Shown piece by piece: positions 27,313 through 39,020 of a stretch of 64,000 bases of DNA. This DNA comes from Thermodesulfobacteriota bacterium. Lineage in GTDB: Bacteria > Desulfobacterota_D > UBA1144 > Nemesobacterales > JAJCZQ01. The notes under the pieces were generated by a model. It was given only the letters and a program-made list of their open reading frames with translations, searched no databases and was not told the DNA's origin. The position numbers and the translations under genes were made by a program. Each line of letters opens with the position of its first letter. Position 1 is the stretch's first letter. The stretch is taken from assembly GCA_965203965.1 (NCBI GenBank), contig CBDBDR010000017.1, positions 1,088,001 through 1,152,000 of the forward strand, given 5' to 3'.

Positions 27313-27819
27313 ATGAAAAATTTTATAAAAATTACAGGCTATATACTTATTTTTTTATCTGCTACGACAAACTCCCATGCAGCTGGAGATAATCTGCTGA
27401 GTGTGGATAAAACGATACTTGTTCAACTTGTTATTGTAATTGTCGCACTTTACGCATTGAACGTATTAATATTTAAACCCTTGCTTGGATTGCTGGACAG
27501 GAGGGAGAAGCTAACCAGAGGGACCCTGGGAGAAGCAAAAAACCTGACGGGAAAAGCAGAAAAACTGATTGAAGACTACAACAGGCAAATTGACGATGCC
27601 AGAACCATGGCAAACAAGCAAAGAACAGAAATAAGAAAGGAAGCCCAGCAGGCAGCAGCAAAGATGATATCCGAAGCAAGGCAGGAATCACAGATACTTT
27701 TAGCAAACTATAAGAAAGATCTGGATGCTCAAGCTAAAAGCGTCAAAGAAAAAATAAAACCAGAAATAGAGAATTTGGCAGGCAATATTGCTTCAAAGAT
27801 CCTCGGAACGGAGGTTTAG
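27313..27819 (+). CDS. ATP synthase F0 subunit b'
   Basis: TM followed by FKPL..LLDRRE and a coiled coil; precedes b and delta. Confidence 0.85.
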   Translation: MKNFIKITGYILIFLSATTNSHAAGDNLLSVDKTILVQLVIVIVALYALNVLIFKPLLGLLDRREKLTRGTLGEAKNLTGKAEKLIEDYNRQIDDARTMANKQRTEIRKEAQQAAAKMISEARQESQILLANYKKDLDAQAKSVKEKIKPEIENLAGNIASKILGTEV

Positions 27820-27820
27820 T

Positions 27821-28318
27821 TTGGATCCATTCAACTGGTCATTTGTAATCAAGCATGCAATCAACCTTCTGATACTGGTTGGAATACTTGTCTATTACAC
27901 AAGGAAGCCAATAAAAAAAGCTCTGGAGAAAAGAAGATCAAATCTGGGCAGAGAAATTGACAGGGCGAGAGAAGAAATAGATAACGCAAAAAGAAAATTT
28001 GATGAATACTCAAGCAAACTAAAGAGTCTTGATTCGGAGGCATCTTCTCTTAGAAAATCAATAGTGGAGTTGGGAGAAAAAGAAAAAAGCGAGATCATAG
28101 AACAAGCTGAACAGGCATGTAAATTGATAAAAAAAGAGACTCAGGAAACCATTGAGCTTGAAGTTTTCAGAGCAAAACAGAAAATAGAACAGGAAGTAAT
28201 TGCAAACTCATTGGAACTTGCTGAAAAATTGGTAAGGGAAAAAATGGGCGACGAATATAACTCAGAATCCGTTGATAAAATGGTTTCACAGATAGAGGAA
28301 AGTAAATGGCTTCAATAG
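27821..28318 (+). CDS. atpF: ATP synthase F0 subunit b
   Basis: GGAGG + TTG start; INLLILVGILVYY..KPI...L..R; coiled coil. Confidence 0.85.
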   Translation: MDPFNWSFVIKHAINLLILVGILVYYTRKPIKKALEKRRSNLGREIDRAREEIDNAKRKFDEYSSKLKSLDSEASSLRKSIVELGEKEKSEIIEQAEQACKLIKKETQETIELEVFRAKQKIEQEVIANSLELAEKLVREKMGDEYNSESVDKMVSQIEESKWLQ

Positions 28319-28845
28319 CTACATTAAGGGATCTTTCAGATGCTCTGACTGAAACGAGTATGGAAAGCGACAACATAAAAAATGTAATTTCGGATCTGTT
28401 GGCATTTTTCAACCTGCTGTCAGAAAACGAAGAATTAAAAAATATTCTTACCACTACTGCTTTTGAAGTTGAAGAAAGAAGGGAGATAATTTCAGATATA
28501 TCTGAGAGCCTGAAAATGAGCACAGAAGCAAAAAATTTTCTGGTAGTGGCTTCCGAACTTGGTAAATTCAGTGCACTGCTGAACAAAAAGGATTTTATTA
28601 TAAGGAGATTGGAATTGGCAGCCGGGAAATTAAAAACAGAGATCACATCAGCAAGATCTTTAACCGAAAATGAACTAAGCAAAATAAAAAAATCTTTAAT
28701 CAAAACAACGGGTAAAAAAATAGAAAGCAGCGTTAGTATAGATGCTTCCATTATCGGAGGGCTCATAATCAAGATAGAAGGGAAGGTCTATGACAACAGT
28801 ATAAAAACTCGATTGGAAAAACTTCAGTCGGCATTAACCGCGTAG
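28306..28845 (+). CDS. atpH: ATP synthase F1 subunit delta
   Basis: ITSARSL, IDASIIGGLIIKI...YDNSIKTRL. Confidence 0.9.
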   Translation: MASIATLRDLSDALTETSMESDNIKNVISDLLAFFNLLSENEELKNILTTTAFEVEERREIISDISESLKMSTEAKNFLVVASELGKFSALLNKKDFIIRRLELAAGKLKTEITSARSLTENELSKIKKSLIKTTGKKIESSVSIDASIIGGLIIKIEGKVYDNSIKTRLEKLQSALTA

Positions 28846-28877
28846 CAATGTAACACATTTTGAGCAAGGAGCTTACC

Positions 28878-30395
28878 ATGGACGAATTGAGAGTTGAAAA
28901 CATAGGCGAGATATTACGAAATCGAATAAAAGGCTATGATGAAAAAGTAGACACTGCAGAGATCGGAACGGTGCTTTCAGTAGGAGATGGTATCGTCCGC
29001 GCTTATGGACTTGATCAAGTAAAGGCCGGAGAGCTTGTGGAGTTTAAAAGCGGAGTATCAGGTCTTGTTCTTAACTTGGAAGAAGATAACATCGGTATTG
29101 CCCTGTTTGGTGAAGACACAGAAGTCGCTCAGGGTGACATCGTAAAACGTACGGGAAAAATTGCCGAAATCCCAGTTGGGGAAGCAATGAAAGGCAGGGT
29201 CATAGACTCACTCGGACTTCCTCTTGACGGAAAAGGTGAAATTGCCACCACTGAAACGCGGCAGATAGAGGTTAAGGCGCCGGGTGTTGTTTACAGGCAA
29301 TCAGTAAAAGAACCTCTTCAGACCGGGATAAAGGCAATTGATGCAATGATACCCATAGGCAGGGGACAGAGAGAGCTTATACTCGGAGACAGGCAAACAG
29401 GTAAGACAGCAATTGCAATTGACACTATAATTAATCAGAAAAACGAAGATGTTTACTGTATTTACGTGGCGATCGGACAGAAGCAGTCAACCGTTGCTCA
29501 GGTTGTTGATAAATTAAAGGAGCACGGTGCAATGGAATACACAACAATCGTATCAGCAACAGCAAGCACACCTGCCCCTTTTCAGTTCCTGGCGCCTTTT
29601 GCAGGTTGTGCTTTAGGTGAATACTTCCGGGATTCCGGCAAGCATGCACTTATAATTTATGATGATTTGACTAAGCATGCTTGGGCATACAGACAGTTAT
29701 CTTTGCTCCTCAAAAGACCACCGGGACGTGAAGCATACCCCGGAGATGTGTTCTATCTTCATTCAAGGCTACTTGAACGTGCCGCTAAAATGAGAAATGA
29801 AGACGGCGGTGGTTCCCTAACCGCTCTTCCAATTATAGAAACACAGGCTGGCGATGTTTCAGCTTATATTCCAACAAACGTTATTTCTATTACAGACGGT
29901 CAGATATACCTTGAAAGCGACCTTTTCTACTCAGGTATCAGACCTGCAATTAACGTTGGACTTTCAGTTTCCAGAGTAGGTGGTTCCGCACAGATCAAGG
30001 CAATGAAAAGCGTGGCAGGCACTTTAAGGCTGGAGCTCGCACAATACAGAGAAGTTGAGGCGTTTTCACAGTTTGCATCGGACCTTGACCCAGCCACTCA
30101 AGCACAGTTAGCACGGGGCAATCGACTGGTTGAATCACTGAAGCAAGGTCAATATCAACCGCTTGCCGTTGAAAAGCAAATACTCGCAATTTTTGCAGTA
30201 ACCAACGGTTACGTGGATAAATACGATTCCTCAGCCGTGCAAAAATATGAGAAAGAAATGCTCTCTTATTTTGAATCCAAGCATCAGAATATCCTTGATG
30301 AGATCAAAGAAAAGAAGGTTATTTCAGAAACAATGGCAGAACAAATAAGAACCGCGCTTGATGAACTGGCAAAACAATTAGGTGATTTTAAATAA
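28878..30395 (+). CDS. atpA: ATP synthase F1 subunit alpha
   Basis: [32 protein letters not shown]. Confidence 0.98.
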
Positions 30396-30396
30396 C

Positions 30397-32750
<2,354 letters not shown>

Positions 32751-32767
32751 TCAACCAGGATAAGAAT

Positions 32768-33178
32768 TTGTCTGAATCTATAAATCTCAAAATAATAACA
32801 CCCAAGATGCTTGTAATAGACGAGCAGGTTAAACTGGTAGCGGCTCCGGGACAGCTAGGAGAATTTGGAATACTCCCCGGTCATGTTCCATTTATCTCAA
32901 CTCTCTCACCGGGATATGTGAAATTTACCGCAGAAGAAAGCACAGAGGCAAAATCTATAATCATTCACGGAGGACTTGCCGAAGTGAGCGAAGACACTGT
33001 CAGAATACTCACTGACGACGCTGAATTCCCGGACTCAATTGACAATGAAACAGCAAGAAAAGAGCTTGAGTTTATTGAAAATCAGATTAAAGAGCATTCG
33101 GGAGATTCAAAGAAACTGAAGGAACTTAATCACAAACTCAAACTAGCACAAGTTAGAGCTTCAATCTCACCCAAGTAA
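32768..33178 (+). CDS. atpC: ATP synthase F1 subunit epsilon
   Basis: IITP, PGQLGEFGILPGH, GGLAEV. Confidence 0.93.
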   Translation: MSESINLKIITPKMLVIDEQVKLVAAPGQLGEFGILPGHVPFISTLSPGYVKFTAEESTEAKSIIIHGGLAEVSEDTVRILTDDAEFPDSIDNETARKELEFIENQIKEHSGDSKKLKELNHKLKLAQVRASISPK

Positions 33179-33396
33179 AGCTAAAAATTTGTTTCTTAAT
33201 ATAACGGGACACGTAAAGAGGAATTCAAACGGGGAAACGATCCTTGTTAAACACTGTTTAAATCCTGTTTAATTGCCATTAAAGCGTCAATAATTCCGCT
33301 AAAAGACCTCTCTAATACGAATTTCTCTGGGGTTTATACTGGAACTTATTTGCTCTTTGCAATTGACTATTTCTTTGTTCCAATCTCGCAATTTGC

Positions 33397-34329
33397 AAGC
33401 AAATTTCCGACCCAGAAACAGGAGAGATACTTGCCGAGAGATTTCCCCCGCATCGCTTAAAAACTATCTATCGCACAAACCTACTATCTGCCTATGCTGT
33501 GGGCAGGGAAGCGTCTATTGAGAAAAATAAAAAGCGCCGTCCTTTTGCCCAATTTATCGCACTTCTTGATTCCCGAACCCGTGATGATCACGCTGAGCTT
33601 CACGGCAGTATATTTCCGGTTGATGATCCTTTCTGGAACACTTTTACTCCACCGCTGGATTACAACTGCCGTTGTAACAAACGGACGTTGACCCAAAGAC
33701 AGATAACCAGCAGAGAATGGGAGGTTAGCAGTTCAAAAGGCAAGCTGGTGCGGAGTTCTTTTGATCTTGGCAAATCCGAAAACAACAGAAAAGTAAGCGT
33801 TACCGGATACCGCCTTTCCCCCACCAAAACGGTCTTTCCTCACGCCAGCTTTGGCTTTAATCCCTACAAAGCTACTTATCAGCCTGATTTAAATAAATAT
33901 AAAAACACCGTTGCTTATCAATATGTGCGGGCAACTGTTTTTGGAGAAGGTTTTAAGAGGTTGGTAAGAGGGAGAAGCAATAAAGGTTGGATGCCCGTTG
34001 CGGTTTTAAATCAGGAAATGACCAAACGACTCGGAGCGAAAAACCAAACAATACTCCTATCTGCAGACACCGTCAGGGAGCATGCAAAAAAAATAAACCT
34101 AAAAGATTATCAGTCAATTCAATCTAAAATTGACGACATTTCTGACAACAAACTTGAAAATATCAAGATCATTCCCAATCCTGACAATAGGCAATTACTC
34201 ACTTGGGAAGAGAAAGGTAAGCATCACATGATAGCTCTTAAAATACTGCCAAACGGGGAGAACTTTTTTCTCACCATGGGCAGGGTGCGGAAAGGAAACA
34301 TTAAGAAATACGAAGAGAGAAATAAATGA
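33397..34329 (+). pseudogene. 5'-truncated Mu gpF/MuF head morphogenesis protein with a BECR/PBECR-like C-terminal domain
   Basis: The frame extends upstream of the listed GTG 33499 (DPETGE...HRLKTIYRTNLLSAYAVGR) to a TGA at 33364, with no ATG/GTG/TTG start before 33499. MuF motif DSRTRDDH...HG...DDPFW...PPLDYNCRC is present. Confidence 0.8.
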
Positions 34330-34330
34330 A

Positions 34331-34465
34331 CTGTCGCCTGGTCAGCTCTGTCCGTGCCAGAAGGACTGCCGTTCCCTTCGTCGCCTTATACGGCTTCTGA
34401 AGTAGCCAGGGGTACCCCACTTTTGGATGCAGATTTTGCAGGCACAGATTTTAATTTGTCTTTTG
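34331..34465 (-). ncRNA. putative structured ncRNA convergent with the MuF-PBECR gene
   Basis: Nested stems (CTGTGCCTG/CAGGCGACAG; TCTGCATCC/GGACAGA), internal hairpins, GC-rich in an AT-rich context, upstream promoter. Confidence 0.55.
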
Positions 34466-34471
34466 TTGTCT

Positions 34472-34501
34472 AATATAGCACCTGTGAGAAGTAGTTGTCA
34501 A
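34472..34501 (-). promoter_or_regulatory. sigma70 promoter driving the ncRNA candidate
   Basis: Minus strand TTGACA (34501-34496), 18 nt, TATATT (34477-34472) with extended TG. Confidence 0.65.
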
Positions 34502-34515
34502 ATCTTACAAAACCG

Positions 34516-34971
34516 CTAAATAAAGCCATTATTTACCATCTTTATAAATTCTGCCATATTACAAACGCGGGAGATTTGCCCGTCTTGTTGTTTTTTGATC
34601 CATTTAATAGCCCCTTGTGAGTGTCCCCCGCCGTCAATTACAATAGCTGTAGAAAAACTATAGTTTTGTTTAATGTTAAGAACTAAATACGGCAACTTTT
34701 CCTCTGTTGTTCCTTTTGACTGTTGCCATTTGCACTCTATAATCAGAAAGTTAGGGTGTTTTTCAGGGTGATAAAGTAAAAAGTCAGCTCTTGTGTCTTT
34801 GCCTTCATAAAGGCTCTTTGCTATTGGGAACTGTGCGGTGTAGGTTGGCTGTTCCAAGATACTACCCGCTTCAATTCTGTTTGCTGGAAACCATAGGTAG
34901 TTACAACCTATGATAAGTTGCTCAATTTGATTTTCAAACGCAGCACCCGTTCTATTTGCCTTGTCTCTCAT
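34516..34971 (-). CDS. PD-(D/E)XK nuclease superfamily protein (putative restriction endonuclease)
   Basis: G..FE, RADFLL, IIECKWQQSKGTTEEKLPY; abuts the methylase. Confidence 0.75.
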   Translation of the reverse strand: MRDKANRTGAAFENQIEQLIIGCNYLWFPANRIEAGSILEQPTYTAQFPIAKSLYEGKDTRADFLLYHPEKHPNFLIIECKWQQSKGTTEEKLPYLVLNIKQNYSFSTAIVIDGGGHSQGAIKWIKKQQDGQISRVCNMAEFIKMVNNGFI

Positions 34972-35793
34972 TTAGTAGTTCTTAATTAAAAATTCTGATA
35001 TGTTTTGTCTGCTTTGTGCTTTACAACTCACCCTTCTGGGTGCTTCTACATTTACGATATTAAAGCTCTTGTATAAGCCTTTTATCTCATCTGTGGCAGA
35101 ATTTGAAAGCATGAAATAAACCCCATCTTTGTTCAGTGCCTTGCAAAAATCAGCTAATTCTATGTGTCGGTCTATGGAAAATCCTTTGTCAGAATAACCG
35201 CTATACGTTTTATGGTATGGAGGGTCTAAATAAACAAAGTCATTCTTGTTTGGTTTGCAACTTGTAAAGTCTTCATTTTTAATTGTTGTGGTTTGCAAGA
35301 CCTTATGACATGCCATAATTCCTATGTCATCAAGAATCAGAGGATTTGCATATTTGCCAAAAGGAACGTTAAATTTGCCTTTACTATTTTCTCTATACAG
35401 TCCGTTAAAACAGGTCTTATTCAGATAAATAAACCTTGAAGCAACCTCAACAGGTGAGGTTATAACGTCTTTGTTTCTGACTTTGTAATAGTAGGTTTTG
35501 TTATGATTTTCTTTATGATATTTTAAGCTATCAATCAGTTCTAACGGCTTCTTTTGTATGACTTTATAAGTGATTATAAGGTCTATATTTACATCGCTAA
35601 TAACCGCCTTTTGTGGTTGCAACTTCCAGAACAAAGCCCCACCACCAATAAACGGCTCATAATAGCCTTTATAAAATTCGGGCAAGTTCTGCACTAAAAC
35701 ATTTAGAATGCCCCTTTTTCCTCCCACCCACTTTACAAAGGGACTTATACCGTTTGAGCTGTGATTTGTTTCTTTGAGATCGTTAGGGTTCAC
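34972..35793 (-). CDS. Dam-family (D12 class) DNA adenine methyltransferase
   Basis: KWVGGK, EPFIGGG, FNGLYRENSKGKFNVPFG, YLDPPY, LSNS. Confidence 0.93.
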   Translation of the reverse strand: MNPNDLKETNHSSNGISPFVKWVGGKRGILNVLVQNLPEFYKGYYEPFIGGGALFWKLQPQKAVISDVNIDLIITYKVIQKKPLELIDSLKYHKENHNKTYYYKVRNKDVITSPVEVASRFIYLNKTCFNGLYRENSKGKFNVPFGKYANPLILDDIGIMACHKVLQTTTIKNEDFTSCKPNKNDFVYLDPPYHKTYSGYSDKGFSIDRHIELADFCKALNKDGVYFMLSNSATDEIKGLYKSFNIVNVEAPRRVSCKAQSRQNISEFLIKNY

Positions 35794-35933
35794 TATTCAA
35801 AATTAAGCAACTTTAAGCTATTTGTCAATTCCCCTCTTTAAGCACAACGCATTTGTCTTAAATGGAAATATAGCAAAAAATGCAATAAATACAGTGAGTT
35901 AGCAGTTGCAAATAAGAGTAGATGTTTAAATTA

Positions 35934-35978
35934 TTCCCCTCCCGTGGAGGGGTGGCAGGCAAAGCCTGACGGGGTGGT
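35934..35978 (+). repeat. REP-like double-hairpin element, copy B
   Basis: CCCCTCC-cgt-GGAGGGG, tgg, CAGGC-aaa-GCCTG, ACGGGGTGGT. Confidence 0.7.
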
Positions 35979-35990
35979 TAAAAAAGGTGG

Positions 35991-36326
35991 TTAATCCCCC
36001 TTGCCTTTTTTAAGAAATCTCAAAATGCTCTCCAGCCGTCGCTCCATCGCCTCAAGTCGCAAGTTTACATCTCTTATTTCTTGTTTGATTGCGTCTTTCT
36101 CATCTTTTAAATAAACTTCCTTCTCCTCAAAAAACGCTTCCCGGCGAACATTAAACTTGCCCATGATTTTATCCATTGCGGAAGCAGGTATCATTGCCCT
36201 TCCAGCCTCCCAATTCCCCACGGTTACTCGCGAAACTTCTAAGAGGTCAGCCACGTCTTGTTGCCTTAATCCCAGCTTGACTCTCAACAACTTTAAATTG
36301 TGAAAATTTTTACTTTTTCTTGACAT
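35991..36326 (-). CDS. XRE/Cro-CI family HTH transcriptional regulator
   Basis: LKLLRVKLGLRQQDVADLLEVSRVTVGNWEAG; C-terminal coiled coil. Confidence 0.88.
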   Translation of the reverse strand: MSRKSKNFHNLKLLRVKLGLRQQDVADLLEVSRVTVGNWEAGRAMIPASAMDKIMGKFNVRREAFFEEKEVYLKDEKDAIKQEIRDVNLRLEAMERRLESILRFLKKGKGD

Positions 36327-36488
36327 TGTGCAAAAAATATGAGAAGATGAAAGTTATGAGATTGGCAACAAAAAAAGACACACCGAGACGCCGATCTCAC
36401 ATTTCCAAGGAGAAACGCACACTGACCACGAGCACATATTCTTGCCACTTCATAAGTGTCCCTCTTACAATTAGGTATTAAAAAGACC

Positions 36489-39020
36489 CTAACTACACTT
36501 AGAATAAGCACAAGACCTGCAAGTCATGCAGCCGGATTCAAATGCCAATGCTCGGTCACCACATTCCGGACAAACTTCAGCTATAATATCGGTGGAGATT
36601 GACTTTCTGATGAAAAGATCAGTTTGTTTTACGTAATCTGGAGTTTTTTTTTCCTCGTTAGTATCTTTAACCACAAAGCGCTTTTTCAGCACCGTTGCTA
36701 TGGCATCAGGAATGGACATCACCAATTTTCCCTCAGAGAAAACAGGAGAAGAACCTCCTATTCCTTCCAATTGGTCTACAACATCTTTAACACTTATGCC
36801 GGATCTGAGGGCTAAGGATACCAACCTGCCGGTTGCCTCTGCATCTGCCATTGCGGTGTAACCCGACTTCCCAATCTGCACAAACACCTCAAAAGGTTTA
36901 TCTTCAAATATATTTACAGTTACGTATAGGTTTCCGTAGCCGGTTTTTATAACCTCTGTAAATCCGGTCAAATACTGGGGTCTTTCTACAGGTTTGATCT
37001 CTGGAAGAAGGGTGGGATGAGGGGATGGGGTGAGGTTGGACTGGGTGAGTGACATCCCTTCATCCCGGGATGAAATCCCTTCTGAGGTGTTGGTCAATTC
37101 TCCTTTTGCTTCCTTTATTAATTTTGCTCCTTCTTCCGTCACTAAAATACCTTCTCTGGAACCTTCCCTATAAACCGTTATTCCTTTGCACCCCATTTTC
37201 CATGCAAGGAAATATATCTTTTCAACTTCTTTCAGAGTAATATCAGCGGGAAGATTAACTGTGCTGGAAATGCACGAATCTATGTGCTTCTGAATTGCCG
37301 CCTGCATACGAACCCGCATTAGAGGGTTTATTTCATGCGAAGTAACAAAAGTGTTTGGTAGTTCTGTCTCGTCACAAATGTTAAATTCTTTTATATAATC
37401 TCTAACCAGAGGGTGATAAACTTTGAATTCCTTCTCAGAAAGAGATTCGGAGCGCCTGTAGTAGGAGAGGGCGAACATTGGCTCAACGCCACTTGTTGTT
37501 CCAGCTAGCACAGAACCGCTGCCAACAGGAGGAACTGTTAAGATACAGGCATTTCTCAACCCCTGTTTTTTAATTTTTTCAACTATATCCCCGCTCACCG
37601 AATCCAGAAATGGTCTTGACAAGTGTGTATTCAGATCAAAAGCTGGAAAACTTCCTTTTTCTTGTGCTAGATCAGAACTTGCTTCATAAACAACATTCTT
37701 AATGTGTTCAAACATTTTATCTGTAAACTTAATTGCCTCATAGCTGTCATATTTTATGTTTAATTTGGCAAGCATATCCCCAAAACCCGTAAAACCAACT
37801 CCTATTCTCCGCGAAAGAGTTGAAGCAGTGGTTTGAAACTCTATCGGATGCTTTTCCATGTTGTAGTCGAGTATATCATCAAGAAATCTTACAGAATACT
37901 GAAAAGCCCTCTCAAGATTTTCCCAGTCAATCTTTGCATTCTCTGTAAATTCATCCCTTACAAACAAAGACAGGTTAACGTTTCCAAGACAGCAACACCC
38001 ATAATCTTCAAGTGCTTGCTCGCTACACGGATTTACACCATTAACTTCCATACCTGCATATTCTGTAGGTGAATATTTTTTGACTGCATCCCAGAAAATA
38101 AGACCCGGTTCAGCAGAAGTCCATGCTGATTTAACTAACCTATTCCAAATATCCCTTGCCTTTACTTTTCTACTGACTTTAACTTTCTCGCTTTCAAATT
38201 TAAGCTCAAAATCCGTGTCTCCTTCTACGGCTTTCATAAATTCATCGGTAACCTTTACTGATATATTTGCAAACTGCACTTTGCTCCTTGCTAAATCATT
38301 TTTTATATCAAGAAACTCCATGATATCGGGATGATCCACCCTGATAGTTATCATCAAAGCACCTCGTCTACCCGCTTGTCCTATTGTGCCAGTGGTTGTG
38401 GACAATAAATCCATAAAAGAAACAGCACCTGTGGAATAAATAGCAGAGTTATTGACGGGAGCTCCTTTTGGCCTCAAGATGGAGATGTCCGTTCCCACTC
38501 CACCACCGAAGGAATAGGTTCTTGCCGCTTCCTTGCACCAATCAAAAATACCTTCAATTGAATCTTCTTTAATTGGCATATAATAACAGTTAAGAAGTGT
38601 TGACCGCCTTTTCTGTCCAGCACCAAAAAGAATTCTTCCGCCCGGTATAAATTTGAAATCAGATAGGAGCCAGAAAAATTTCTTCTCCCACTCTTCTTTA
38701 AGCCGACTAGTCTTCTCCGGCGATGATATTTCTCTTGCAATCCTGCTCCAAAGCTCTTCTGGGGTTTTCTCAATAATCTTTCCGGATAAATCTCTGAGGG
38801 CATATTTTTCGTAAAACACACGTGCTCTTAATTCATCCCCATCAAAAGCGTCTACAGTCTCTTGAGGTATATCCATAACACTGTCTGAAAAACCAACTGA
38901 TCCTTCCTGATGCTCTGTATCATTTTCAAGAATCTCCCCAACCTGCTTCTTGAAATCTTCTTGGTCAATCACATCTAAGTCTCTACCATTACTCTGGTTA
39001 GGTTGAATTTTTTCCGACAT
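36489..39020 (-). CDS. nrdJ: adenosylcobalamin-dependent (class II) ribonucleoside-diphosphate reductase with TSCPD domain and C-terminal Zn ribbon
   Basis: LLNCY, GRRGALM, NPCSE, CCLGNVNL, PPVGS, ISSTVNLP, KGITVYREGSR, TG.GNLYVTVN, CPEC...CRSCAYSKC. Confidence 0.93.
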   Translation of the reverse strand: MSEKIQPNQSNGRDLDVIDQEDFKKQVGEILENDTEHQEGSVGFSDSVMDIPQETVDAFDGDELRARVFYEKYALRDLSGKIIEKTPEELWSRIAREISSPEKTSRLKEEWEKKFFWLLSDFKFIPGGRILFGAGQKRRSTLLNCYYMPIKEDSIEGIFDWCKEAARTYSFGGGVGTDISILRPKGAPVNNSAIYSTGAVSFMDLLSTTTGTIGQAGRRGALMITIRVDHPDIMEFLDIKNDLARSKVQFANISVKVTDEFMKAVEGDTDFELKFESEKVKVSRKVKARDIWNRLVKSAWTSAEPGLIFWDAVKKYSPTEYAGMEVNGVNPCSEQALEDYGCCCLGNVNLSLFVRDEFTENAKIDWENLERAFQYSVRFLDDILDYNMEKHPIEFQTTASTLSRRIGVGFTGFGDMLAKLNIKYDSYEAIKFTDKMFEHIKNVVYEASSDLAQEKGSFPAFDLNTHLSRPFLDSVSGDIVEKIKKQGLRNACILTVPPVGSGSVLAGTTSGVEPMFALSYYRRSESLSEKEFKVYHPLVRDYIKEFNICDETELPNTFVTSHEINPLMRVRMQAAIQKHIDSCISSTVNLPADITLKEVEKIYFLAWKMGCKGITVYREGSREGILVTEEGAKLIKEAKGELTNTSEGISSRDEGMSLTQSNLTPSPHPTLLPEIKPVERPQYLTGFTEVIKTGYGNLYVTVNIFEDKPFEVFVQIGKSGYTAMADAEATGRLVSLALRSGISVKDVVDQLEGIGGSSPVFSEGKLVMSIPDAIATVLKKRFVVKDTNEEKKTPDYVKQTDLFIRKSISTDIIAEVCPECGDRALAFESGCMTCRSCAYSKCS

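Follow-up and report, generated by a model that had tools for sequence, protein, structure and literature searches.

A structured RNA that accompanies MuF-PBECR3-type genes was identified in a 64,000-nt stretch of DNA from a Thermodesulfobacteriota bacterium (assembly GCA_965203965.1, contig CBDBDR010000017.1, positions 1,088,001 to 1,152,000; the whole of this stretch is hereafter called the window). Its gene, ~147 nt long, occupies positions 34319..34465 on the minus strand and converges with an open reading frame (ORF) for a MuF protein with a PBECR3-like C-terminal domain, the TGA stop of which lies at 34327-34329; the assignment draws on a strand-specific fold, identity to paralogues, and helix covariation. 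As judged from sequence comparison, the RNA is a conserved, covarying partner of MuF-PBECR3-type genes, and its family is a widespread, well-supported structured RNA, whatever its function. The family RNAs are tRNA mimics, not tRNAs, and a role as immunity factor of the neighboring RNase is tentatively proposed.

The block at 34319-34465 is considered a real small-RNA gene, independently transcribed from the minus strand, because it carries a promoter, a hairpin with a U-run, and a fold that beats shuffled sequences on the minus strand only. On the minus strand, the 146 nt past the MuF stop have a folding energy of -41.7 kcal/mol (z -2.16, with 5/200 shuffles as good), whereas the plus strand is no better than its shuffles (z +0.46, 132/200 as good). 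The G+C content is 0.56 over the model match at 34352-34447, against ~0.38-0.43 in the surrounding 2-kb bins, in agreement with the GC-rich block that the initial annotation had pointed out past the MuF stop. The promoter named there (34472..34501, minus strand) was likewise recovered, with a -35 box TTGACA (34501-34496), an 18-nt spacer containing an extended TG, and a -10 box TATATT (34477-34472). It makes 11/12 matches, a score that is joint best among 16 sites in 33100-36500 (3.4 kb). The RNA start was inferred at ~7 nt past the -10 box and the RNA end at the U-run.

The closing helix P1 is CUGUGCC/GGCACGG (34448-34441 with 34358-34351), formed by the 5' strand UCUGUGCC (34441..34448, minus) and the 3' strand GGCACGGA (34351..34358, minus), where the alignment of covariance model R2 also puts the model P1, although not significantly. 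Its sequence is wholly different between RNA types while the pairing is kept, and it is this helix that covaries instead of the nested closing stems CUGUGCCUG/CAGGCGACAG and UCUGCAUCC/GGACAGA drawn at first; CAGGCGAC of the claimed stem in fact sits in the conserved loop of a terminal hairpin. By contrast, the P4 hairpin GAAGGG-AACGGCAG-UCCUUC (34360..34379, minus) had been drawn correctly and is conserved in paralogues and homologues. A pseudoknot had been predicted between ACGGC and GCCGU; a pseudoknot does exist, but its partners are CUGC and GCAG. The kissing strand CUGC (34429..34432, minus), directly 3' of the conserved GCAAAAUCU, pairs with GCAG in the P4 loop (34369-34366), and within the window type this pairing covaries as CUGC/GCAG, CUCG/CGAG, CUCC/GGAG, and CUCA/UGAG. 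The terminal hairpin GAGCUG-ACCAGGCGA-CAGUUC followed by AUUUAUUUC (34328..34348, minus), a likely terminator according to the fold, overlaps the MuF TGA stop. It was unlisted in a simple terminator scan because its loop has 9 nt. The loop ACCAGGCGA is shared with the c2-type copies of the same genome and with loci L017 and L047, both in Thermodesulfobacteriota genomes. In L047, a truncated MuF-PBECR3 gene and its RNA lie directly behind a CRISPR array of 20 repeats (Rfam CRISPR-DR16; L047:1023-2453).

No ORF of at least 40 aa was found in the block, and a small ORF is ruled out by three 1-nt indels relative to paralogue c4, which break any frame; the earlier statement that no immunity-like ORF follows the MuF gene is therefore upheld. 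Tandem repeats were absent from 33300-34700, ARAGORN called 0 tRNA genes in the window, and an Rfam search of the window, at the gathering score as well as at E ≤ 10, gave nothing relevant over the RNA, including the tRNA model. A blastn search with the block against 60 related genomes left it unmatched save for one 19-nt chance match. Contigs from RNA libraries (3 runs, one study) reach from 34320, 34346, or 34392 to 34501-34502 with 0-1 differences and a depth of 2.6-4.9. These contigs, which give neither strand nor ends, span the promoter and continue into foreign flanks, indicating an origin in other copies or strains; nothing follows from the MuF ORF portions that they leave uncovered.

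The MuF gene opposite the RNA (33397..34329, plus strand; copy c1) is a truncated chromosomal orphan copy, a C-terminal cassette without its 5' part, and not the intact phage gene in a phage setting first assumed; by gene content, the window is bacterial chromosome with an atp operon and ribonucleotide reductase. Truncation is concluded from Pfam, a start-codon scan, and paralogue alignment, because the Phage_Mu_F match (PF04233, E 2.9e-20) covers profile positions 32-110 of 112 only, no early start codon is available, and ~95 N-terminal residues are gone, with a repeat in their place. The first in-frame ATG/GTG/TTG after the upstream stop is GTG 33499, which excludes the gene start initially set at 33397, and c1 aligns with residues ~94-406 of the 406-aa paralogues. 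The repeat that forms the left boundary of the ORF (33216..33400, unstranded) is a multi-copy genomic element of ~120-180 nt with 10 further blastn matches in the assembly at 76-97% identity (9 on contig C17 and 1 on C13). It also lies upstream of MuF copies c2 and c3, and takes the place of the MuF 5' part in c1 and c6. RNA-library contigs cover 33310-33385 within this repeat as well.

The C-terminal domain of c1 (33889..34326, plus strand; 146 aa) is likely of the PBECR3/BECR type, a divergent PBECR3-like domain with a BECR-type fold, as suggested by its AlphaFold2 model, structural alignment, and Pfam matches of homologues; RNase activity is accordingly predicted rather than observed. The model of the isolated domain reached a pLDDT of 90.7, and its comparison by VIA-align with 48,161 solved chains placed CdiA-CT of E. 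coli O32:H37 (8ey4, Z 5.2) and BrnT (4.9) first, followed by the colicin D tRNase domain (5znm, Z 4.7; 1tfk, Z 4.1) and CdiA-CT NC101 (5i4q, Z 4.6). RelE, HigB, and MqsR rank below these, and all top matches are BECR-type RNases. Foldseek with the whole 310-aa model returned nothing at E ≤ 0.001, and PADLOC left the MuF proteins unmatched. The PBECR assignment, originally made by eye, is supported by 14/36 aligned homologues that match PBECR3 (PF18812; best E 6e-18), by paralogue c2, which falls under the cut-off of 30 (E 6.9e-6, 26.4 bits), and by the BECR folds at Z 4.7-5.2. At the aligned catalytic columns, the window copy retains His (REH) and Thr (LTM).

Paralogues within the same genome (an assembly of 17 contigs, 99.5% complete) revealed how the RNA and the domain travel together. 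Six MuF-C-terminal loci were detected by tblastn, two of them intact at 406 aa (c2 and c3, with Phage_Mu_F at E 1.3e-21 and 7.2e-25, respectively; PF04233) and four truncated or broken (c1, c4, c5, and c6). A G+C-rich block follows in 6/6 loci, with an opposite-strand TTGACA box in 5/6. Eight RNA copies of three sequence types were retrieved by blastn (2 c1-type, 3 c2-type, and 3 c3-type); the C-terminal domains also fall into three sequence types, and RNA type tracks domain type. When the copies are compared, most of the MuF part is 86-100% identical at the nucleotide level, and identity then falls sharply to 43-55% in the final ~480 nt. In the pair c1/c4, the resemblance extends from the stop codon precisely to the -35 box and no further; identity is 87-89% across the whole block including the promoter and 98.4% across 34440-34501. 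Promoter and terminator signals are retained in all three RNA types. Moreover, one c3-type RNA has a TATATT box but is not accompanied by a MuF gene; its neighbors are dnaE on one side and a type I hsdM/hsdS pair on the other (L096:6095-6226; C17:1176084-1176222). At the level of sequence, polymorphic toxin loci are marked by the combination seen here: an N-terminus that is conserved, a C-terminus that is hypervariable and linked to a downstream module, and truncated orphan cassettes. The paralogues are flanked by housekeeping or defense genes, not phage genes. Since the RNA moves with the MuF C-terminal cassette to loci lacking a methylase-nuclease operon, the suggestion that it belongs to the operon next to the window copy does not hold.

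Several further features of these loci were observed. On contig C13 (L014, 6548 nt), the genes follow each other as in the c3 region (AhpC, AAA_26, cytochrome c), but MuF is truncated and frameshifted, a c2-type RNA lies downstream, and a c3-type RNA lies upstream. The contig probably represents a strain variant of that region, so that the RNA copies need not all share one cell and the locus would be a hotspot of cassette exchange. Directly behind the c3 and c6 RNA genes, a SocA/Panacea-domain antitoxin gene and a 122-aa partner are present (L012:6995-7870 and L014:33-908, both on the minus strand), indicating that a second toxin-antitoxin pair adjoins the module. The c4 module is located among TIR-TPR, FRG-TPR, and TaqI-like specificity-domain genes (L015:3646-10002), a setting that resembles a defense island. 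The c2 and c4 modules are flanked by a G+C-rich repeat that is partly palindromic (CCCCTCCACAGGAGGGG...) and is also found at several further genomic sites (among its places L011:8369-8392 and L002, C17:1438546-1441707); it may be a REP- or MITE-like element. A Portal_Mu search of the genome gave no match, and the control likewise matched nowhere.

Beyond this genome, 73 protein relatives were found in a large protein database, many of them ~400 aa long with PBECR Pfam labels, and homologous loci were taken as the best 80 of 462 genome matches plus the best 80 of 570 metagenome matches. On the strand opposite MuF, just past its stop, one plan recurred in many of these loci: a -10 box such as TATACT; P1, the closing helix, with 8-10 pairs; P2, a short hairpin with GAAUCUCCC-like bases in its loop; P3, a middle hairpin under a GNRA or UUCG tetraloop; P4, a hairpin whose loop bears a GGGAG-like complement of the P2 loop; and finally the P1 3' strand, often with a U-run at the stop codon. 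A first covariance model (R1, 7 sequences) found 15 loci, and the rebuilt model R2 added nine more, including Haemophilus phage SuMu, where the RNA (38.9 bits, E 1.5e-6) begins one base past the MuF stop in an unannotated gap. Between the SuMu RNA and gene G, a hypothetical ORF of 66 aa is annotated (L179:3226-3426). With filters off, R2 yielded seven further loci, all at the expected place. The record titles span at least eight phylum-level groups and one isolated phage. A first metagenome scan with motifs from the own-genome copies gave no confirmed case, and Rfam 15 left the RNA unmatched in 16 homologous loci (gathering score) and in another 9 (E ≤ 0.1).

Covariation across the family is extensive. 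In an alignment of 18 sequences, 93.8% of cells were paired and 25/27 pairs changed on both sides, with 0/500 shuffles as good and slid partners reaching 40-45%; in an alignment of 15 sequences, the values were 96.2% and 18/22, again with 0/500 shuffles. In the closing helix alone, each position has four to five kinds of base pair, and the loop-loop contact varies as CUCCC/GGGAG, CUCUC/GAGAG, CUGCC/GGCAG, CUCGC/GCGAG, AUCC/GGAU, and AUCU/AGAU. For the own-genome copies, RNAalifold on a MAFFT alignment of all 8 gave two hairpins only, because MAFFT had set the helices in different registers; further MAFFT alignments were likewise unfit as model seeds, and the window-type helices were therefore listed by hand and tested by shuffling. 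In 13 window-type sequences, the hand-listed helices paired in 99.2% of 260 cells, with 17/20 positions changed on both sides and 0/500 shuffles as good.

The linkage between RNA and domain was assessed with a hidden Markov model (HMM) of the C-terminal domain, run on the MuF ORFs of the 160 loci at a cut-off of E ≤ 1e-15. The domain was present in 37/160, and the RNA lay directly past the stop in 35/37 (22 detected by R1/R2 under default filters, 6 once the filters were switched off, and 7 through inspection by eye or R3, a model built from 18 diverse sequences). A covarying motif downstream of MuF-PBECR homologues, for which the initial annotation had proposed a search, is thus present. In searches with the models, and not by eye, the 113 loci without the domain gave no R1/R2 match below E 0.5. 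L030 and L099 are the two exceptions: there, gene G overlaps with the stop codon of MuF, and the domains are short (129 and 125 aa) and lack the conserved Ser/Thr; L030 has Arg at the His column, as does the RNA-bearing L045. In phage Mu, F overlaps G and leaves no room for the RNA, and the domain of Mu is called an inactive PBECR in the available text of Iyer et al. 2017 (PMC5512222). Phage VW-6B has no F-G gap, and BcepMu has a short MuF and no gap. With so few exceptions (L030, L099, and phage Mu), these observations can do no more than hint that an active RNase and retention of the RNA go together.

These data also bear on whether there is a gene at all. The block might be a structured DNA or RNA relic, such as a tRNA gene in decay, a bidirectional terminator, or a repeat element located behind MuF by chance; the window MuF is pseudogene-like, the genome is rich in short intergenic repeats, and transcription of the block is a prediction. 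Nevertheless, a relic is very improbable, given that promoter and terminator signals persist in all three RNA types, compensatory changes extend across many phyla, and the position is kept at nearly all domain-bearing loci.

As for the window copy, its membership in the family is predicted from its position, from its architecture and shared motifs, and from its paralogues. It lies just past a MuF-PBECR3 stop behind its own promoter, and has a P1 and a P4 loop pairing with an upstream CUNN. The window type shares P1, the single strand GCAAAAUCU followed by CUNN, the central hairpins, and the P4 loop with the complementary NNAG, and it adds an extra terminal hairpin with the loop ACCAGGCGA. The models link the RNA types stepwise only: the scores from R3 were 21.3 bits for L017, 21.0 for L016, and 19.5 for L069 (E 0.02-0.06), and 12-14 bits (E 1.2-3.2) for the three c2-type own-genome copies, with ends identical to those set by hand.

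The family fold is a tRNA-like cloverleaf, in which a closing helix is combined with D-arm-like and T-arm-like hairpins whose loops kiss, and the middle arm ends in a tri- or tetraloop where the anticodon loop would be. Among ten loci that match the domain HMM weakly, four (L095, L118, L121, and L131) have an RNA at the equivalent place, with a 7-bp acceptor-like stem, a GGG-bearing D-like loop, a T-loop-like GGUUCGAGUCC, and an anticodon arm cut to four pairs and a tri- or tetraloop. The T-loop-like GGUUCGAG and an acceptor-like stem occur in the L095-type copies and in L094, and a GGUUCGAGCC stretch stands at the T-arm position in L094 and phage SuMu. At L148, ARAGORN calls the RNA, 12 nt past the MuF stop and behind a TATACT box, a tRNA-Val; it is the only copy so called. 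A genuine tRNA in L017 scored 23.5 bits with R2 and 25.6 bits with R3, and the Rfam tRNA model left the family RNAs unmatched at E ≤ 0.1.

Taken together, the RNA may be a cognate, uncleavable tRNA mimic that acts as the immunity or antitoxin factor of the PBECR3 RNase, a reading that we place just short of an even chance. Under this proposal, the RNA would be transcribed from its own constitutive sigma-70-type promoter and end at the hairpin and U-run over the MuF stop; it would then occupy the substrate site of the RNase like a tRNA but remain uncut, taking over from the small immunity protein found with other MuF toxins. Within Mu-like prophages, the RNase could thereby be made and packed without killing the producing cell or the lysogen, and with a constitutive promoter directed against the late operon, lysogens might also resist RNase injected by related phages. 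Many homologues lie within Mu-like head modules. In Mu-type loci, a gene resembling Mu G (named by eye; the gene order is annotated in phages SuMu and Mu) starts at the RNA promoter, leaving no room for a protein immunity gene. In the window genome, the solitary cassettes might serve as toxin-antitoxin-like or orphan immunity modules, and the modules there adjoin restriction-modification, TIR-TPR, and Panacea genes. The window copy combines a truncated toxin gene with an RNA gene that looks intact.

A tRNA-like RNA could also have another role, as a decoy against host anticodon nucleases or other tRNA-directed defenses, as a cofactor or cargo bound by the MuF C-terminal domain and taken with it into the capsid and on to the next host, or as a guide or a substrate processed by the domain. 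The tRNA-like shape, with the L148 copy nearly a true tRNA, and the presence of copies in defense-rich neighborhoods fit such roles, as does the RNA-binding role predicted for inactive MuF-C domains in the available text of Iyer et al. 2017 (PMC5512222). Such a role is nonetheless quite unlikely: a tetraloop in place of the anticodon loop would not allow the RNA to substitute for a tRNA in translation, the tracking of domain type by RNA type within one genome points to a cognate pair, and loci with a shortened domain, or one reported inactive, lack the RNA.

Gene orientation raises a different alternative. In all but one of the examined loci the RNA is convergent with MuF, and its end overlaps the stop codon, so it might be a cis-antisense regulator (type I-like, or a silencer of late genes) that pairs with the MuF 3' end or the read-through (F-G) transcript and triggers cleavage or prevents leaky production of the RNase or of the gene downstream; the fold would then be needed for stability and initial kissing only. 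In Mu-type prophages, the late transcript has to run through the RNA gene before it gets to G, whose start is overlapped by the RNA -10 box; a constitutive promoter is, moreover, typical of antisense antitoxin RNAs. At L016, however, the RNA gene is on the MuF strand, downstream and with its own promoter, and is still matched by R3. In addition, orphan RNA copies without MuF exist (e.g., C17:1176084-1176222), the overlap with the coding region is only a few bases, and simple antisense needs neither a closing helix nor a tetraloop arm nor a covarying loop-loop pairing. Because of the flipped L016, the orphan copies, and the elaborate covarying fold, action dependent on the fold is favored over plain antisense, which we regard as unlikely.

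Several points weigh against the immunity reading or against its application to the window copy. The near-universal convergence with MuF suits an antisense role too. With its MuF ORF truncated, the window locus may have no toxin left to neutralize, and the window copy's C-terminal domain lacks any direct Pfam match; structural Z values of 4-5 are modest and can arise by chance. R2 gave the window copy only 6.7 bits (E 1.1 in 3 kb), which, although the best match there and exact in its ends, is not significant, and R3 over the whole 64-kb window returned nothing at E ≤ 10. Covariation was counted on model-fitted alignments, which favor structure, or on hand-picked helices. Support for expression comes down to low-depth contigs from libraries in which DNA can occur, a weak hint at best. 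Finally, binding, inhibition, and tRNase activity are inferred.

In its broadest form, the proposal is that a widespread, unnamed class of tRNA-mimic RNA provides immunity to MuF-PBECR (colicin D-like) RNases that are carried in phage heads and injected, that lysogens and bacteria with orphan RNA copies are immune, and that solitary modules represent a new type of RNA-protein toxin-antitoxin system; this we hold to be somewhat less than evenly balanced. The predicted immunity of lysogens to the RNase of superinfecting relatives follows from the RNA gene having its own constitutive promoter. If the RNA does neutralize the RNase, the family would be the first among polymorphic toxins to rely on an RNA for immunity, and its RNA antitoxin would be of a new kind, in which a single-copy tRNA mimic is paired with a BECR RNase. 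It would also explain how an active RNase can be present in Mu-like virions without death of the producer cell, and it would offer a handle on PBECR targets, with the mimic pointing to tRNA.

The surroundings of the window locus consist of chromosomal genes. Upstream of the MuF ORF, a complete F-type ATP synthase operon extends over 27313-33178 (plus strand). Downstream of the MuF ORF, past the RNA block, the minus strand encodes a PD-(D/E)XK nuclease (PF20472) at 34516-34971, a Dam-type methyltransferase at 34972-35793, and a class II ribonucleotide reductase at 36489-39020, and a controller-like HTH protein (35991-36326, minus) is located upstream of the methyltransferase. The nuclease, Dam-class methyltransferase, and HTH genes (34516-36326, minus) likely form a type II restriction-modification unit. 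A 29-nt piece of the c2-type RNA promoter (TTGACAAATTGCTTGAAATTG...) reappears at ~35808-35836, upstream of the methylase.

With respect to known systems, what is apparently new is the conserved RNA partner of MuF-PBECR genes, as MuF toxins with protein immunity and type III RNA antitoxins are already known. MuF-PBECR fusions themselves are described in the available text of PMC5512222, and no description of such an RNA partner was found in Rfam 15 or the literature searched, with subscription journals and supplements lying outside that search. MuF polymorphic toxins share with the present modules an N-terminal MuF, a variable C-terminal domain, and a putative protective gene immediately downstream; according to the available text of Jamet et al. 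2017 (PMC5576092), a small ORF follows 89.4% of 191 muf toxin genes, and MuF toxins occur only in temperate phages and prophages. Here, in contrast, the downstream partner is an RNA, and the own-genome modules are inserted between housekeeping genes.

Type III toxin-antitoxin systems (ToxIN, CptIN, and TenpIN) would be similar, if the immunity reading holds, in that an endoribonuclease is neutralized by an adjacent, cognate, pseudoknotted RNA, with specificity residing in the RNA. Their antitoxins consist of tandem repeats that lie upstream of the toxin gene, share its transcript, and are processed by the toxin, as stated in the available parts of PMC8860590 and PMC5772629. The likeness to type III antitoxins drawn in the initial annotation fails on these points, since the RNA here has no repeats but is a single unit with its own promoter, downstream and mostly convergent, with a tRNA-like cloverleaf, and by Pfam the toxin candidate is a MuF-BECR protein, not ToxN/AbiQ, CptN, or TenpN.

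Compared with tRNA, the family has a four-helix cloverleaf with interacting D-like and T-like loops. Unlike tRNA, it lacks a 7-nt anticodon loop, its loop-loop contact consists of 4-5 Watson-Crick pairs, and the window-type RNA, which is missed by ARAGORN and the Rfam tRNA model, has extra hairpins and a separate terminator hairpin.

Type I systems offer a parallel in gene arrangement, as in Bacillus TxpA/RatA, where a convergent small RNA with a strong promoter of its own lies beside the toxin gene. Type I toxins are small membrane peptides, however, and the RNA acts by a long duplex, whereas the candidate toxin here is a MuF-BECR protein of 310-406 aa, the two genes overlap by a few bases, the RNA fold is conserved, and L016 shows the reverse orientation; pairing of the RNA with the read-through 3' untranslated region of the MuF transcript is possible.

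The closest solved folds to the C-terminal domain (Z 4.1-5.2) are those of the colicin D/ImmD and CdiA-CT/CdiI systems, whose toxins are tRNases blocked at the substrate site. Their immunity factors are proteins, and ImmD has been described as a protein mimic of tRNA; in the MuF-PBECR3 modules, by contrast, a tRNA-shaped RNA would fill this role, and the activity of PBECR3 on tRNA is a prediction.

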